DNA from: Podospora anserina
Lineage: Eukaryota
Assembly: GCA_017654855.1 (NCBI GenBank)
Contig: CM030336.1
Span: 4,092,001 to 4,156,000 of the forward strand
DNA: 64,000 bases
Direction: 5' to 3'
Shown piece after piece: positions 480 to 17,069 of this stretch. The notes beneath the pieces were generated by a model. The model searched no databases. It was not told the origin of the DNA and saw nothing but the letters and a program-made list of their open reading frames with translations. Within the stretch, counting starts at the first letter, position 1. Every line of letters begins with the position of its first letter. A program made the position numbers and the translations under genes.

Positions 480-1488
480 TGGACTGCCGGACAGGGCATT
501 GTGTGTGGCTTGTGGATGCTACCGTACCTTATGTTCCGGGGGACCCTGAGTGGCAAAGCTTTTCTCCGAGAAAACTCCCGGTGAGTCCGGCCGAGATTGT
601 CGGTGCCGCTCCGGAGCCGAGGTGCTTGGGCATTGCTTGTCTTGATCCGTGTCTGAGTGATGTGTAAGTTGGCGATGGCTTCATTCAGTCATATAATTCT
701 TCAGCGTACTTGGGTGAGAATTAGAAAATGTGTTGGTAAAAAGCCCAGCATGGTTGGAATATCAATGACGCTAAAGCCCCAGAAGATAGCACATAGCTTT
801 TTCAAGCTGTCTCAAAGGCATGTACTTTTTCCAAGGCCATCTTTCATCAAGGCCTATCGTCCATGTCAGAAGTTCTACCACCTTCTTACAGGACCTATAC
901 ATCATCCTGAAAGGATTCCTAGCTACTATCTTGAGGTCTGCCCAAGATCTTATTGTTCTATTCTGACAGAAGGTCAGATGGCATATCCAAGTTGTTTCCC
1001 AGGTACCCACATTTTTATTTATGAGCTAAGGACATCTGTAGCTCAATGGGAGACATTGAAGGCTTAGAGAATCATTCATTGACGAATCTAAAGGTACTTC
1101 CAAATCAGAGATGGACATCCTTCTTGATTTCCTGTTTGCGGTGATAATTCGCCAAATAAGGGGCTTCTTGAAGGCTCTCTTTGATGAAGCTAAGGGTCAT
1201 TTTACTTTCATCTTATAACGTCCAGACATTCTACTTCCTGGCTGATCTCATTGTGCCCAGGTAGCTGGCCAGCTCAGACTTCGCTCTCGAGAGCAGACAC
1301 AATAGCAATTCGCACAGCTTGCTCCCGCCTCGCAACGATGGAGTTATCTCTGCTTCCGCCTGTTCAGATGCTACTGGGGAGCACACACAATAGCAAATTT
1401 CCACAGATTGTTCCTGCCTCAGATCAACAAAGCTCTATCTGTTTCCGCCTGTTAGAAGTCCAAGAGCCTTGTGACTTCATCCCATCTA

Positions 1489-1584
1489 TTCACTTGTTCA
1501 CTTGTTCACTTGTTCACTTGTTCACTTGTTCACTTGTTCACTTGTTCACTTGTTCACTTGTTCACTTGTTCACTTGTTCACTTG
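1489..1584. repeat. Perfect 8-bp tandem repeat (TTCACTTG)x12
   Basis: 96 bp of exact ttcacttg units; explains the HLFTCSLV repeats in all three + frames. Confidence 0.97.
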
Positions 1585-2228
1585 CTCCTGGGCGGGTACC
1601 TGGAAGTGGACGGAAAAGCCACCGTCCCATCTGTCCCCGGCGTCAAACCCTATTTATTGCCCGTTGCTTGGTTTTTTGCTCTGTCATCTCTTCCTCTCGC
1701 ACAACAAACGACCAACGGCAGAATACTTCCAACTGCAGGTATTCCCAGTCACAACCTCGAGTTTCCGCTACTGATCTGCCAAACCGCTTGGTGCCAACCT
1801 ACCAATTCAAGAAACTACAAATTTGGAACAGCACCGCACAACAAAGGTACGTGCAAATATTCACCACCCTCCAGAGTTCCGACTCCAACAACTGTACAAC
1901 CCGTTCGACTCTCTGGCACCTTCCTCCCAAGATCCAGGCGCCCCTCCCTGCCCCTCTCACATATGCCCTCCTTTTCCCAACCATTACCCATGGCGCAGTC
2001 ATCCAACTGATTCGAGTGGCTAAAAGCCTTTAGGCAGACGATCATTGGAACTGCTCACCCACATTCAAGGGACTGGAGCCAACTAGCAACAACCGAGATC
2101 GACTTATTCACTGACTCAGTCGTAATCAGCCATCCAGTAGAAATCAAGACCTGTAAGTGAATTGTCGACATTACTGTGTTTAATTGCATTTGGAACGGCT
2201 TGCTAACATTTGTTCGACAGCTCCAATC

Positions 2229-4991
2229 ATGGCTTCTGCCAACGTCAGGAATGGGTTTCCCAAGGATGTGCCGGCCTACGGAAACTGGCCTGGCCAGTAT
2301 CTTCTTCTCAGCTATGGCGACAGGGTCCGCATCATCGCCCACGCAATGACTTATGACCAGCTCATCAGCATGATCCGTCGCGGATTTGGCATTGGCCGAT
2401 ACGACAATCTGACCCTACTTTTCAAGCATATGATGCCCCAGGGCAATACCATCGAGGCCGAGCTGGATGAGTCCGCCTACTATCTTATCAAGAACCAGTC
2501 CGAGATTCGCTGCGTCGATACGCTTCAGTACCTCAACACGAAGCGCCAGGCTCCCCAGGTACCTCTTGCGGGTTACACTCAGCCGAACGTTTATCCCAGG
2601 TACAGTTCTGGGTACGACAGATTGTTCGCACCTTTTTCGACTGCGCCCTCGAATCCATATGTGGTGCTTATGCCCGCCCCTTCAATGCAGCACCAGCATG
2701 TTCCCCAGATCACTGGAGTGACGGCCACCGGTGAAAAGAGCAATGCTTTCGGTGGTGTTGCTGGCCAGCCTACGAGCACCGGAGCTGCCACAGCTGCCCA
2801 AGTTTCCCAGCCGGCCCCTGTCAACGAGCCCGAGAGAGATCCCAGAACTGATCTTCCAAAGGGCTGGCTTATGTTTTCTGACGACGAGCTGCCCAGAGAC
2901 TCAACTGTGAAGCTGGGTAACAACCTTTTCGGTAAGAAGGCCATCAACACTGCCGCGACAGAGGGACCCAACCAGACCAAGAATTCCATCATCCATCCCA
3001 ATCTGTGGAGGCCCGTCATCACGTCCGAGAAGCAAACCGAGGCGCCCCAAGACAAAGGGAAGGGGGTCATGAAGAAGGAATCAGCTGGGGAATCTTCCAA
3101 AGAAAAGAAAGCCACAGGGTGGTGCGAAGTCACTGCTACTTACACTGCCATGAAGTCTGCTTTGGCGTCACGCTCTACACCCGTGGATCGCCGTCTCGTT
3201 CACGATTATCTGGTCGCAAGCACCTATATGAATGGCGGCAAGGAGCCGCTCTGCGAGCCCGAGAGAAAGTTTCTCCTGAGCGTATTCGGCCGTTGCTATG
3301 CAACGAAACCAATCAAGTACCTCGCGGATCTCCGCCACGACAGTGAGATCTTGGAGATCCTGCTCAGTCATACCCCTGGTTGCAATATGAGGTGCGCGGC
3401 AGATGTCAGGGACAAGTGCACCTGCGGCGGACCTCAGGGGCCCAAAGAGTGCTGTGAAGAGAGGCTCAAACCCTCCACGATCGGAAACATTTTGGAATGT
3501 GCAAAGAGTCGCCTCAGGGATGCTCTGGACCGCACTGGCATCGTCTCGCAGCGCGACATCAAGGGCGAGACGTTTTACTTTCACCATGAGAAATGTGTCC
3601 AGAGCATGTGCATCTGTACCATCTTCGCAACTCTGGCGCAGCATGAACCTATTTGTCTGATGAGAAGTCGCCTCGATGTCGAGATGGTCTGTGACTGTGA
3701 CCGCAACACCAAGCGCAGTCAACTTCCGAAATCTCAAGACACAAAGTTGATCCAGACCACACTTGGGTGGGTTGGTGATCTTGGGGAGGTTGATGGTGAG
3801 ACCTGTGCCCAGGAAATTTTCCGTCGGAAACATATTGACAGCCTCGTGCGCAACTTTCACGAGCTCACTTGTAGTCCGCTCAAGGATGAGAATTGCGGTG
3901 ACTGCTCAGTGTTCCGGATCCTGCTGGGACATCACTGGGATTGTCCCATGAGGCTAAAAGTGGACCTCGGCGATGAGTGCCAATGCGACCGGCTTCGGCG
4001 GGAGGACGATGAATATCTGGAAGGCGATGATGAGGTGGGCAGTATCAAGTGGGTTACCGATGGTCTGCACGAAGCAGCGAAACTGTACCGCGGCAACAAC
4101 CTCACCAGGGAGGAATGGAAGGAGGCCATAACGGACTTTCACAATGAGTGGTGCCACGGCTGGTGCTGCTGCATGCGTCTGAGGGATATTGCCGAGCATG
4201 ATCCTGACTGCGGGGGAGTTCAGGATACATTCGAGGATTGGAAACTTTGCAGCTGCAAGAAGAGTCTTAACCCTCGCGGCACTTCTGACGTTGCAGAAGA
4301 GGCCATTCATGTCGAGGCTTCTACCAAAGTCAAGGAGTCTGGTGTTGATGACGAGAGCGACAATGGCGAGGAGTGGACACCCACCACCAGTGTGGTTGAC
4401 GAAGATGATGACGATCTGCCCGATCTCATCCCTCACCTTGGTTCTGATACCGGAGGCTGGAAGTTTCCAGGTTGGTGTGAACCCCTGTTGGAGGAACGTA
4501 CGCGCAGTTTTGAGGCGCCAGAGCACCTCAGCAAGCAGCTGACATCGAAGCAAAATTGGCTTCGCAATATGACAGACAAGAAGCCAACGGAGGAGAGGGA
4601 TATCAATCTCGAGGAGCTGACCGCTACGAACAGGCAAGGACTGAGCATGGACGAGACGACGGAATTGATTGCTAAACAAGTCGACAGATTGAATCAAGCC
4701 AGTTACAGGTACTGGGAATCTAAGAAGGCGAAGCTCGAGGATGATTCGGTGAAGGAGAGTTTGCAGACCTCTGAGAGGGAGCACGGGAGCAACGACAATG
4801 AGTCGAACGCAACAGCGTCTTCCCGGGTTTCCGTCCAAATGCCTGAGGCGAACCCGGGTGCTTCCAGCTCCAGGGCTAGCCACAGGGCCACTGTGGAGGA
4901 CTTCCCTGAGATGCCCTCGGACATCGCTACTGGGGGTGGCTTTGATTCGGCGAAGAAGACTCACTCAGCCTTTGGCCAGCCAGACCTGTGA
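2229..4991 (+). CDS. Uncharacterised ~920-aa protein: ubiquitin/PB1-like N-terminal domain, central tandem His/Cys (HCCC) zinc-binding repeats, acidic C-terminus
   Basis: Long ORF; ATG at 2229 in caatcATG context just after a canonical 5'-UTR intron (2153-2220, GTAAGT..GCTAAC..CAG); repeated H-x3-C-xn-C-x1,2-C motifs at 3369-4256. Confidence 0.85.
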   Translation: MASANVRNGFPKDVPAYGNWPGQYLLLSYGDRVRIIAHAMTYDQLISMIRRGFGIGRYDNLTLLFKHMMPQGNTIEAELDESAYYLIKNQSEIRCVDTLQYLNTKRQAPQVPLAGYTQPNVYPRYSSGYDRLFAPFSTAPSNPYVVLMPAPSMQHQHVPQITGVTATGEKSNAFGGVAGQPTSTGAATAAQVSQPAPVNEPERDPRTDLPKGWLMFSDDELPRDSTVKLGNNLFGKKAINTAATEGPNQTKNSIIHPNLWRPVITSEKQTEAPQDKGKGVMKKESAGESSKEKKATGWCEVTATYTAMKSALASRSTPVDRRLVHDYLVASTYMNGGKEPLCEPERKFLLSVFGRCYATKPIKYLADLRHDSEILEILLSHTPGCNMRCAADVRDKCTCGGPQGPKECCEERLKPSTIGNILECAKSRLRDALDRTGIVSQRDIKGETFYFHHEKCVQSMCICTIFATLAQHEPICLMRSRLDVEMVCDCDRNTKRSQLPKSQDTKLIQTTLGWVGDLGEVDGETCAQEIFRRKHIDSLVRNFHELTCSPLKDENCGDCSVFRILLGHHWDCPMRLKVDLGDECQCDRLRREDDEYLEGDDEVGSIKWVTDGLHEAAKLYRGNNLTREEWKEAITDFHNEWCHGWCCCMRLRDIAEHDPDCGGVQDTFEDWKLCSCKKSLNPRGTSDVAEEAIHVEASTKVKESGVDDESDNGEEWTPTTSVVDEDDDDLPDLIPHLGSDTGGWKFPGWCEPLLEERTRSFEAPEHLSKQLTSKQNWLRNMTDKKPTEERDINLEELTATNRQGLSMDETTELIAKQVDRLNQASYRYWESKKAKLEDDSVKESLQTSEREHGSNDNESNATASSRVSVQMPEANPGASSSRASHRATVEDFPEMPSDIATGGGFDSAKKTHSAFGQPDL

Positions 4992-5150
4992 GGAAGAGCA
5001 AAGGGGTGACGACATCAAGTCGAACGCGAGCACATATTCCTGGGTGTCCGTCCGGATGCCTAAGAAGAGCTCTCGTGCTTCTAGCTCCAAGGCTAGCTAC
5101 AAGGTCACTGTGGAGGACGGTGTCGCTACCGGGGGTGACTTTGGCTTTGG
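4764..5150 (+). repeat. Diverged direct duplication (period 217 bp) of the C-terminal coding segment of the 2229-4991 gene
   Basis: cagacctctgagagggagc.. (4764) vs cagacctgtgaggaagagc.. (4981); QTSEREHGSNDNESNATASSRVSVQMP..ATVED..IATGGGF vs QTCEEEQRGDDIKSNASTYSWVSVRMP..VTVEDGVATGGDF. Confidence 0.85.
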
Positions 5151-5642
5151 GTCGTTGCTGGCCTTTCCAGGAATAGTCGATCTGCCTGGCACCCTCTGCC
5201 GAATCCAATCGATCATGACAGGGATCTTGCAATTTCTTTTCTTTTCTGGGCTGGGCTGGGTTTGTCGGGCAATAGGTGTATTGGTTGGGCGTTGGTTGGC
5301 TTTTTGATACCCGAGACTGGTAGTCTCCATGGACTTTGGGACGGGGTATTATGCAGGTACTGGATCCTGAGAGCCAAGGATTCATTATGGGGGGGGAATG
5401 GAAAAAAGGAAACAATCACCAAAAAAAAAGGGAGGTATGTTTGGTAGTGTAGTCTAGGTTCATCTGCTTGTTTGGCAGCCATAAGCGCTGGGTTTCTGTA
5501 TATCCTCATGCTTTGTTTTGCTACGTGAGGGATCTGTTTTGTTTTGGCCAAAGAGCGCACGTGAATGTGAAAATAACTTGTTTTGGTTTCCTGATATTTA
5601 CAACGCTAGGAGACTACCGACATGCCCCATCATTGAAGATGC

Positions 5643-6753
5643 TCAAAGCCTAGCACCGCCCTCCTCCCCCTTGACCTCCACCATCAACTTGCCGGTATTC
5701 TTGCCTGTAAACAACCAGTCAAAGGCCTCCTCGGCACTCCTCACACCACCCTTGACAACCGTCTCCTTCCTCCTGAGCTTCCCCTCAGCCAACCACTGCG
5801 CCAGCTGCTTCCTCGCAACATCATACTCGGTGATGTAATCAAAAACAATAAATCCCTGCATCCTGATCCTCTGGGTAATCACATTGAAGAAGCTCGCCCC
5901 CGGCCCCTTCTTCTCGGCCGAGTTGTACTGCGAAATCCCGCCGCACATGACAAACCTGCTAAACTGCGCAGCCCTCGCCATGACCATGTCAAGGATCTCG
6001 CCCCCGACATTATCAAAGTACACATCCACAAATTTCGGTGTCGCCTCCTTGAATTTCTGCTTATAATCCGGGGACTTGTAGTCAATCGCCTCATCCAACC
6101 CCAGCTCTTCCTTGAGCCAACGGCACTTTTGCTCCCCCCCGGCAATACCAATCACCCTCGCGCCGGCGATCTTTGCAATTTGCGCGGCTACTGAACCGGT
6201 CGCGCCAGCGGCGGCGGAGACGACGACCGTGTCGCCTGGCTTCGGGAGGCCGATTTTCGTCATGCCGAAGTAGGCTGTTAAACCGGTGGACCCGAGCACG
6301 CCGAGGAGGTCGGTGAGTTTGCCGCCCTGGGGGAGGTCGTACGCTTTTTCGACTTGGGAGTCGGGCATGATGGCGTATTCTTGGATTCCCGAGGCGGAGG
6401 TGACGATTGTTCCCGGGGAGAACTTGGTGGATTTGGAGGCGAGGACGCGGGAGACGGTGAGGGCGCGCATGACTTCGTTTAGTTGGACGGGGGGGATGTA
6501 GGAGCGGCGGTCGTCTAGCCAGCCGCGCATGGCTGGGTCGAAGGAGACTGAGGGAGGGGGTGGGGGGTTAGTTTGCGCAAACTTGGATGCTATGAGTGAA
6601 GGGGCGCTTACTGTAGAGAGTCTCGAGGAGGACTTGGCCATCTTTGAGGTCGGCCTCGGTGGGGGCGGGGGAGGATTTGAGGGAGAAGGTTTTGCCTTTC
6701 TCGATTGGGCCGGAGGGGCGTTGGGAGAGGACGAGGGAGGTGTTGGTTGTCAT
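5643..6753 (-). CDS. NADP-dependent MDR oxidoreductase (prostaglandin reductase / LTB4 12-hydroxydehydrogenase family), C-terminal PTS1 (ARL)
   Basis: Exons 6753-6612 and 6547-5643 (intron GTAAGC..CTAAC..CAG); motifs SFDPAMRGW, GLTAYFG, VSAAAGATGS, YFDNVGG, CGGISQYN, GKNTGK. Confidence 0.95.
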
Positions 6754-16800: not shown

Positions 16801-17069
16801 GAGCGGCAGCGCCGTCGCTTAAGTGCCACTTGTGTCCGTGCCCGCCGAACCGACACAGCGGATTTTCCCCTCCTCCCACTCTTTGTCTGTGCGTACACCA
16901 CAGTCCTCCTCATCATCATTAGTGCAGTGGCCTTCTCGTTTACGGATGATCGGGCATGTGGGAGATGGGATTATTTTAGGGCACTTTCGTTTTCAGTCCA
17001 ATAATCTGCACGCTCAAAGTAAGTATGTCTCGCTGCGCAGGATTTTTTCTGCTCACATGCTCACTTGCC

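Follow-up and report, generated by a model that had tools for sequence, protein, structure and literature searches.

To our knowledge, helical domains that hold zinc with one histidine and three cysteines are few (those of the TAZ, ALOG and zinc-associated anti-sigma, or ZAS, type), and each represents an old and widely spread family. Here we examine an orphan protein of the fungus Podospora anserina whose central region carries His-Cys3 (HCCC) motifs in tandem. Its gene lies in a stretch of 64,000 nucleotides of contig CM030336.1 (assembly GCA_017654855.1, forward strand, positions 4,092,001 to 4,156,000), which we refer to as the window and from whose first position all nucleotides are numbered. 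The described systems closest to it are the TAZ domains of CBP/p300 and the DNA-binding domain of the plant ALOG proteins. The ligands that PMC11328122 lists for TAZ1 (H362, C366, C379 and C384; H393, C397, C403 and C408; H417, C421, C426 and C429) and for TAZ2 (H1744, C1748, C1753 and C1758; H1767, C1771, C1779 and C1782; H1792, C1796, C1801 and C1806) have the common spacing H-x3-C-x(4-12)-C-x(2-4)-C-x(8-9)-H-x3-C, and in the TAZ1 layout described there the helices end in H-x3-C and the last Cys of a site begins the next helix. TAZ folding is described as zinc-dependent (PMC3534135). The ALOG knuckle, 103-HxxxC...119-CxC or H-x3-C-x11-C-x-C, is presented in PMC10927535 as a structural brace that is inserted in a four-helix DNA-binding bundle and does not itself read DNA. 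Both spacings had been named in an earlier note on this DNA: the HCCC sites and C-x8-H link of TAZ agree with the ligand numbers in PMC11328122, and the ALOG spacing is confirmed by PMC10927535.

The reading towards which we lean, with moderate confidence, is that the orphan protein acts as a multivalent adaptor or hub, in which a helical repeat restricted to this lineage, with two zinc ions per unit, is borne by a disordered scaffold that also has a PB1-like contact domain. Its parts differ in strength. We have good confidence, by analogy with described zinc domains, that each unit would fold as a small domain of helices held together by two zinc ions in a structural role, and modest confidence that the units would be independent protein-binding modules on a multivalent, disordered scaffold. 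Zinc sites are predicted because the ligand set and geometry match the proven zinc sites of TAZ and ALOG.

Tandem HCCC motifs and repeat units

A regular-expression scan of the 920 residues found the full unit pattern, H-x3-C-x(3-7)-C-x(1-2)-C-x8-H-x3-C-x(11-12)-C-x-C, three times, together with one half unit. The half motif, H-x3-C-x(11-12)-C-x-C, occurs at residues 381-399, 472-490, 568-586 and 657-676, and each of the last three occurrences is preceded by F-H-x3-C-x(3-7)-C-x(1-2)-C-x8, giving seven HCCC sites in the protein (three full units and the half unit; Table 1). The scan reproduced the three full repeats and one half repeat of the earlier note with their spacings and coordinates; the listing of the units was also correct except in its order, as the half unit stands first in the protein and not last.

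The central 300 residues would thus be built from three complete copies and one half copy of a helical module of about 75 residues, in which two structural metal sites per full module, almost certainly for Zn(II), would clamp the helices together. Site A would be formed by the His and Cys at the C-terminal end of helix 2 (F-H-x3-C) and by a C-x(1-2)-C knuckle with which helix 3 begins, and site B by the H-x3-C at the end of helix 3, exactly eight residues past the knuckle, and by the C-x-C found 8-12 residues further on. On this arrangement the predicted number of zinc ions is seven in this protein and five in each of its orthologues.

Of the 32 Cys and 25 His in the protein, 27 and 12, respectively, fall within the 301 residues that 3360-4260 encode. 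An origin of the motif array by chance is excluded: residues 370-680 were shuffled 20000 times, and no shuffle produced four or more half motifs (two at most), while a single one gave at least one full motif. When all six frames of the window were scanned, the full motif was found only at the three places in this protein, and the half motif at the four places in the protein and at one unrelated, loose match at 16827. The half unit is related to the full modules, as judged by hhalign (probability 96.9%, E = 1.3e-10), over 32 columns that correspond to the inter-site helix and site B. Ser372 of the half unit is aligned with the last Cys of site A, and two orthologues have Cys at this position; for the first part of the half unit no relation to the full modules was detectable by hhalign.

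Relatives and conservation of the ligands

A word-indexed search with residues 300-690 against 5.8 billion clusters returned a single relative besides the protein itself, which was represented by 13 member sequences on 8 contigs. A HMMER scan with residues 301-690 against 1.84 billion representatives returned five proteins at E<=0.001, namely three orthologues and two C-to-T converted copies of the same gene. The orthologues, annotated as hypothetical proteins without a name, belong to Cercophora samala (P0002, 938 residues), Triangularia setosa (P0004, 870 residues) and Apiosordaria backusii (P0005, 1080 residues), all of them Sordariales that NCBI places in the Lasiosphaeriaceae or Podosporaceae, within a small group of moulds of dung and soil. 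Identity among the four proteins is 34-54%. A profile of the four full-length proteins found no new relatives, and a module profile run against longer proteins found only the same four proteins and one C-to-T converted contig; the latter search depends on 5-residue words in common, which means that remote carriers of the module may escape it. No paralogues were seen in the protein databases searched, and the gene is single-copy on this evidence.

The two converted copies (P0003 and P0006, found in Logan only) were rejected as relatives and dropped from all alignments, as every one of their substitutions is of the C-to-T type (His to Tyr, Pro to Phe or Leu, Thr to Ile, Ala to Val, and Arg to Cys). 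They are most likely assembled bisulfite-converted reads, and entries of this kind can mimic diverged homologues in searches.

In the three units common to all four proteins, every alignable ligand (20 of 20) is invariant, so the His and Cys positions on which the proposal of a zinc-binding repeat depended are conserved in the orthologues. Among the other gap-free columns of residues 300-690, 35 of 255 are invariant, and among the columns of non-ligand Cys or His, 1 of 11. The ligand columns differ from the others with p = 6e-14 (Fisher), a value that counts 20 of 22 ligand columns as invariant, the two missed being unit-2 columns aligned against a linker. Considering the non-ligand cysteines whose columns have residues in all four proteins, C356 alone is invariant, and C342, C389, C409, C424 and C647 are variable. 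The column of C408, which is occupied in three proteins, is conserved among them.

This pattern of conservation bears on a reading in which the Cys3His sites are reactive and the protein would serve as a switch that responds to redox state or metal, as a buffer that releases zinc on oxidation, or as a store of zinc or copper. The density of cysteines (27 in 301 residues) and the differing number of units between species fit such a role, as does the likeness of site A, with its H-x3-C and close Cys pair, to the H-x3-C-x2-C motif of the zinc-associated anti-sigma factors, which release their zinc on oxidation. However, only the ligand Cys are conserved, which favours fixed structural sites over a general thiol or metal sponge, and no redox partner domain was found in Pfam at E<=10. 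We regard a reactive role as improbable.

The nine full units of the four proteins fall into three types by their pairwise scores. Type 1 comprises the unit at 452 of the window's protein, that at 507 in C. samala and that at 628 in A. backusii; type 2 the units at 544 in the window's protein, at 438 in T. setosa and, less clearly, at 721 in A. backusii; and type 3 those at 638 in the window's protein, at 606 in C. samala and at 572 in T. setosa. Each orthologue is without a different full-unit type and the window's protein alone keeps all three. For instance, C. samala is without Module 2. The unit nearest to this module is T. setosa 438-481, with a score of 134, while the scores of that T. 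setosa unit with units of the other two types are 38-96. Judging from these sequences, it is most likely that the ancestor possessed all three unit types and that a different one was lost in each orthologue. That each orthologue lacks a different type suggests that single units are dispensable and probably fold on their own.

Predicted structure of the module

An AlphaFold2 (AF2) model of Module 3 (residues 604-681) was made from a module alignment of seven rows and reached a predicted local distance difference test score (pLDDT) of 80.3 and a predicted template modelling score (pTM) of 0.70. The model has helices at its positions 3-17, 24-37 and 44-53. His35 is located in the final turn of helix 2 and Cys39 two residues beyond that helix, Cys43 and Cys45 mark the beginning of helix 3, and His54 and Cys58 follow directly after it; the final C-x-C is in a less confident tail. 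The predicted layout is of the TAZ type, with the ligands grouped into sites A and B because a helix of eight residues separates the C-x-C from the next His. Helices were also predicted, at low confidence, throughout residues 318-480 and 604-656 in an AF2 model of the full-length protein.

The same predicted helix is relevant to the possibility that the cysteines form disulfides or hold an iron-sulfur cluster instead of zinc. Cys3His ligand sets do occur in some iron-sulfur proteins (those of the CDGSH type), and C-x-C pairs are found in disulfide-rich secreted fungal proteins. In the model, however, a CDGSH-like grouping, C-x-C-x8-H-x3-C, would be geometrically unlikely, because the predicted helix sets the C-x-C and the next His about 2.5 turns apart. 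Neither a signal peptide nor an N-terminal hydrophobic signal of any kind was seen in the sequence when judged by eye, which points to an intracellular protein, and an H-x3-C placed where a helix ends is a classic way of holding zinc, as in the TAZ and ALOG sites described in the sources cited above. Chemistry other than zinc is therefore very unlikely in our estimation.

The module model was compared with known structures in several ways. A Foldseek search against the PDB gave no matches at E<=0.001 (best E 2.3), VIA-align against 48161 representative chains gave a best Z of 4.2 (rmsd, root-mean-square deviation, 3.7; 61 residues aligned), and when the 104 chains from Foldseek were examined again the highest Z was 4.1. 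According to the notes of the tool, helical models that share no relationship commonly score higher than this. The top fold matches (the helical part of P-element transposase, a saposin-like PAS factor and the Ffh N domain) were rejected as generic helical similarities, with Z<=4.2. No TAZ or ALOG entries were listed in the three fold searches, which used a zinc-free model, and their absence does not exclude those folds. A query of the ESM Atlas with residues 370-680 gave no usable feature match, and its template modelling (TM) scores of 0.20-0.28 to unrelated bacterial families were discarded as noise.

Comparison with TAZ, ALOG and other described families

No Pfam family was matched by the whole protein at E<=10. 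Queries with each of the four modules, with the N-terminus and with the orthologues returned sub-threshold noise from Pfam, without zf-TAZ, ALOG or PB1 at E<=10, and no DNA-binding family reached this threshold for the protein, its modules or the orthologues. Sequence searches of the PDB with the protein and with the module profile gave no matches at E<=10 and, in particular, no CBP/p300 chain, and no paper describing the protein came to light in a literature search. The Pfam, PDB and fold searches were thus without a confident match to a known family. The earlier note had suggested an undescribed fungal zinc-binding repeat, and this proposal is supported, in that neither a family match nor a lack of ligand conservation spoke against it; "fungal", however, is too broad, as the repeat was found in four Sordariales species only.

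The modules resemble the TAZ zinc fingers (PF02135) of the sources cited above in several respects: in the model, the HCCC sites are located between consecutive helices with H-x3-C at a helix end, the last Cys of a site begins the next helix, and C-x8-H joins consecutive sites. Both H-x3-C and C-x8-H are present in 9 of 9 full units of the four proteins, and zinc-dependent folding may be expected for the modules by analogy. In contrast to TAZ, with its three HCCC sites and four helices, each module has two sites and, in the AF2 model, three main helices, and a motif scan found no His at x8 distance after the last C-x-C that could begin a third site. The Cys pair of the module is C-x(1-2)-C where that of TAZ is C-x(2-4)-C; in site A the spacing is x1 in eight units and x2 in one, so that the TAZ range is reached once. 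Furthermore, the modules are in tandem repeat, in a protein without an acetyltransferase or BTB context, and they are acidic, whereas TAZ domains are basic. The TAZ family profile was not matched.

Descent of the module from TAZ by common ancestry, as a highly diverged and truncated form, has points on both sides. In its favour, H-x3-C ... C-x(1-2)-C-x8-H-x3-C corresponds in order and spacing to a pair of consecutive TAZ sites as numbered in PMC11328122, and the predicted helix positions agree with the TAZ layout. Conversely, zf-TAZ gave no match in Pfam at E<=10, the PDB profile searches were empty, the module is smaller by one site and one helix (two and three, where TAZ has three and four), and the net charge is opposite to that of TAZ. 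Intermediates are lacking, because no relatives were found beyond the four Sordariales species. We consider common descent with TAZ to be quite improbable.

With the plant ALOG DNA-binding domain (PF04852; LSH3 structure) the modules share, in site B, the ligand set and spacing of the knuckle and its placement after a helix. Site B has the spacing x11 in units 0, 1 and 2 and x12 in unit 3, and three of the four site B units thereby have the exact ALOG spacing H-x3-C-x11-C-x-C given in PMC10927535. By analogy, site B would be a structural brace, as the ALOG knuckle is. Unlike the knuckle, site B closes a three-helix module that also holds a TAZ-type site, the modules are acidic, and the ALOG family profile was not matched.

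The ALOG-like spacing is also the starting point for a reading in which the modules are nucleic-acid-binding zinc domains, site B working as the HC3 knuckle does in ALOG, where it braces the helices in contact with DNA, and the protein is a regulator of transcription or RNA. The long disordered flanks of the protein are consistent with this, such flanks being common in transcription factors. The charges are not: 8 of the 9 full modules are net negative (pI, the isoelectric point, 4.3-6.3), the exception being T. setosa 438-481 at +9, and the protein as a whole is acidic (net -31, pI 5.4). Neither ALOG nor any DNA-binding family was matched in Pfam at E<=10, and the ALOG knuckle itself is described as making no contacts that read DNA (PMC10927535). 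Binding of nucleic acid is in our view unlikely.

Homology or a shared fold with TAZ or ALOG is not supported by these comparisons; the likeness is one of ligand spacing and site architecture. The module is best filed among the helical His-Cys3 zinc domains, without a match to a described family or solved fold. A bolder reading, which we hold to be possible but rather doubtful, is that the unit of about 75 residues is a new zinc-dependent fold that was born and duplicated in one young clade of the Sordariales and independently combined a TAZ-type site with an ALOG-type knuckle.

The N-terminal domain, the scaffold and the proposed role of the protein

The N-terminal domain is the best-conserved part of the protein among the orthologues. 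In the full-length AF2 model it has the order strand-strand-helix-strand-strand-helix, which is the right order for a PB1-like beta-grasp, at a pLDDT of 41-52. In the Atlas, an ESM model of residues ~12-111 has look-alikes that carry PB1 (TFG-like, NBR1-like, Par6-like and RWP-RK), with TM scores by query of 0.57-0.64 over residues ~20-100, and three of the ten rows reach the bar for the name PB1. Atlas feature scores of 0.81-0.88 to PB1 and other ubiquitin-like families are likewise at the level of a lead. A complex prediction with two copies of residues 1-112 was run without an alignment and scored 0.00, a result that speaks neither for nor against self-association.

No secondary structure was predicted by AF2 for residues ~110-300 and ~680-760, the latter including a probably disordered, acidic linker whose net charge is -8 over the 40 residues from residue 681 and again -8 over the 40 from residue 721. 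A long helix was predicted at residues 764-836 in the full-length model. This succession of a predicted PB1-like beta-grasp, predicted zinc modules, disorder and a long helix is reminiscent of scaffolds such as p62 and NBR1, in which a PB1 domain is combined with a ZZ-type zinc finger. The likeness is restricted to architecture, as no PB1, ZZ, UBA or NBR1 profile was matched (Pfam, E<=10) and the zinc modules are of another type.

Taken as a multivalent adaptor or hub, the protein would have its modules strung along the disordered scaffold as independent, zinc-dependent protein-binding units, and the PB1-like beta-grasp would provide a further protein contact. The acidity of the modules argues against the binding of DNA or RNA and against a TAZ-like binding of acidic activation domains; the partners would rather be basic or amphipathic peptides. 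We rank the alternatives in the order of nucleic-acid binding, a redox or metal switch, TAZ descent and, last, non-zinc chemistry.

Several points weigh against the adaptor reading. The function that it assigns to the protein is purely inferential, and the analogy with TAZ may not extend to function, because TAZ domains are basic and 8 of the 9 modules are net negative. The module model was built without zinc, so the clustering of the ligands in space is a prediction, and the alignment behind its confident scores has only seven rows. The full-length AF2 model, from an alignment of four rows, has a pLDDT of 31.7 and is unusable other than for the order of secondary structure, for which alone it served. 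Residues 1-111 gave no Pfam family at E<=10 and the PB1 profile (PF00564) was not matched; the ubiquitin- or PB1-like N-terminus that had been proposed is thus backed by look-alikes of its predicted structure, as a lead, and not by a Pfam profile. Lastly, the neighbourhood of the gene consists of ordinary metabolic and housekeeping genes (for an MDR-type oxidoreductase, a polyprenyl synthetase, an ESCO-type protein and a phosphatidylserine decarboxylase) and gives no functional hint.

Gene structure and transcripts

The gene is real, transcribed and spliced. Positions 2184-4991 of the + strand form one uninterrupted open frame with its first ATG at 2229, and the Met-Ala at its start is common to all three orthologues in the alignment. 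A search of sequencing runs found 20 that contain the stretch, and the contigs of four of them (X1, X2, X6 and X8) were compared with the window over 1000-6500. None of the 20 runs is recorded as RNA; the RNA nature of X1, X2 and X6 was deduced from their splice joints. The X1, X2 and X6 contigs, which come from three studies, cover the entire coding sequence without a single difference inside it and reveal two introns in the 5' leader and one in frame with the coding sequence (Table 1). The second leader intron stops 8 nucleotides (nt) upstream of the start codon, and the zinc region sits within the single exon 2221-4633. In the spliced mRNA the longest open reading frame begins at the ATG at 2229, and there is no upstream ATG in the leader from 1555.

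Splicing of the in-frame intron takes out 18 residues, so that the protein has 920 residues when nt 4634-4687 are retained and 902 when they are spliced out. One X8 contig (4513-4682) runs into this intron. The spliced contigs and the X8 read-through together make isoforms of 902 and 920 residues possible, and retention may represent an alternative isoform. The intron is read as coding in the database protein of the window and in the C. samala orthologue, and the 18 residues that it encodes are partly conserved.

Table 1. Features of the orphan gene and its product in the window (nucleotide positions of the 64,000-nt stretch)
Feature	Residues	Position	Strand	Basis and details
Orphan protein coding sequence (P0001)	920 residues	2229..4991	+	Open frame and translation
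PB1-like beta-grasp domain	about 20-105	2286..2543	+	Predicted structure only
Module 0 (half unit), helix and site B only		3321..3425	+	Site B H381 C385 C397 C399; ligands invariant
Half-unit motif H381-x3-C385-x11-C397-x-C399	381-399	3369-3425	+	Motif scan
Module 1	418-490	3480..3698	+	Predicted site A H452 C456 C461 C463; site B H472 C476 C488 C490
Full unit	451-490	3579-3698	+	Motif scan
Module 2	~520-586	3786..3986	+	Predicted site A H544 C548 C556 C559; site B H568 C572 C584 C586
Full unit	543-586	3855-3986	+	Motif scan
Module 3	604-676	4038..4256	+	Predicted site A H638 C642 C646 C648; site B H657 C661 C674 C676
Full unit	637-676	4137-4256	+	Motif scan
Acidic linker, probably disordered	~680-760	4266..4508	+	Charge and AF2
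Conserved C-terminal short motif	886-896	4884..4916	+	A887 T888 V889 E890 P893 P896 invariant in four proteins
5'-leader intron, 180 nt, GT..AG		1847..2026	+	Joint 1842>2023, cut +4, in X1, X2 and X6 contigs
5'-leader intron, 68 nt, GT..AG		2153..2220	+	Joint 2152>2221 in X1, X2 and X6 contigs
In-frame intron, 54 nt, GC..AG, optionally retained		4634..4687	+	Joint 4629>4684, shift +4, in X1, X2 and X6 contigs

A further candidate intron was not accepted: a GT..AG skip of 105 nt at about 4471-4575 (3-base shift, in frame) occurs in a single low-depth X6 contig with 27 letters on one side. Within the transcribed leader 5' of the gene there is a perfect 8-bp tandem repeat, TTCACTTG, in 12 copies (1489-1584), at which the RNA-like contigs break. 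Upstream of it, another GT..AG joint on the + strand, at about 1003-1093, is indicated by loose ends of X1, X2 and X8 that match 977-1000; either the leader starts upstream of 977 and has a third intron, or a separate + strand RNA is present. At 2092, in a 5' leader exon, the RNA-like contigs of X1, X2 and X6 have T where the window has A, which is probably a strain difference.

At the other end, the contigs of the orphan gene stop at about 5435-5489. An X8 contig has a poly-T loose end before 5566 that corresponds to the poly(A) end of the oxidoreductase gene on the minus strand (5643-6749). The transcripts of the two genes are convergent, and their ends thus lie within about 100-130 nt of one another.

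Significance

The orphan protein presents an unclassified tandem module that shares the local chemistry of TAZ, ALOG and ZAS-type sites, in a gene seemingly confined to a few closely related fungi. Should the predicted zinc binding and fold prove false, it would be an ordinary lineage-specific, Cys-rich protein. If they are true, the module would be a new entry among the zinc-binding folds and a tractable case of the origin and duplication of such domains, and it would provide a handle on the function of an anonymous protein in a group of genetic model fungi. If the more doubtful reading of a new fold is also true, the module would represent a rare, datable and recent birth of a metal-binding domain, with modular gain and loss and a peptide-binding function of its own.

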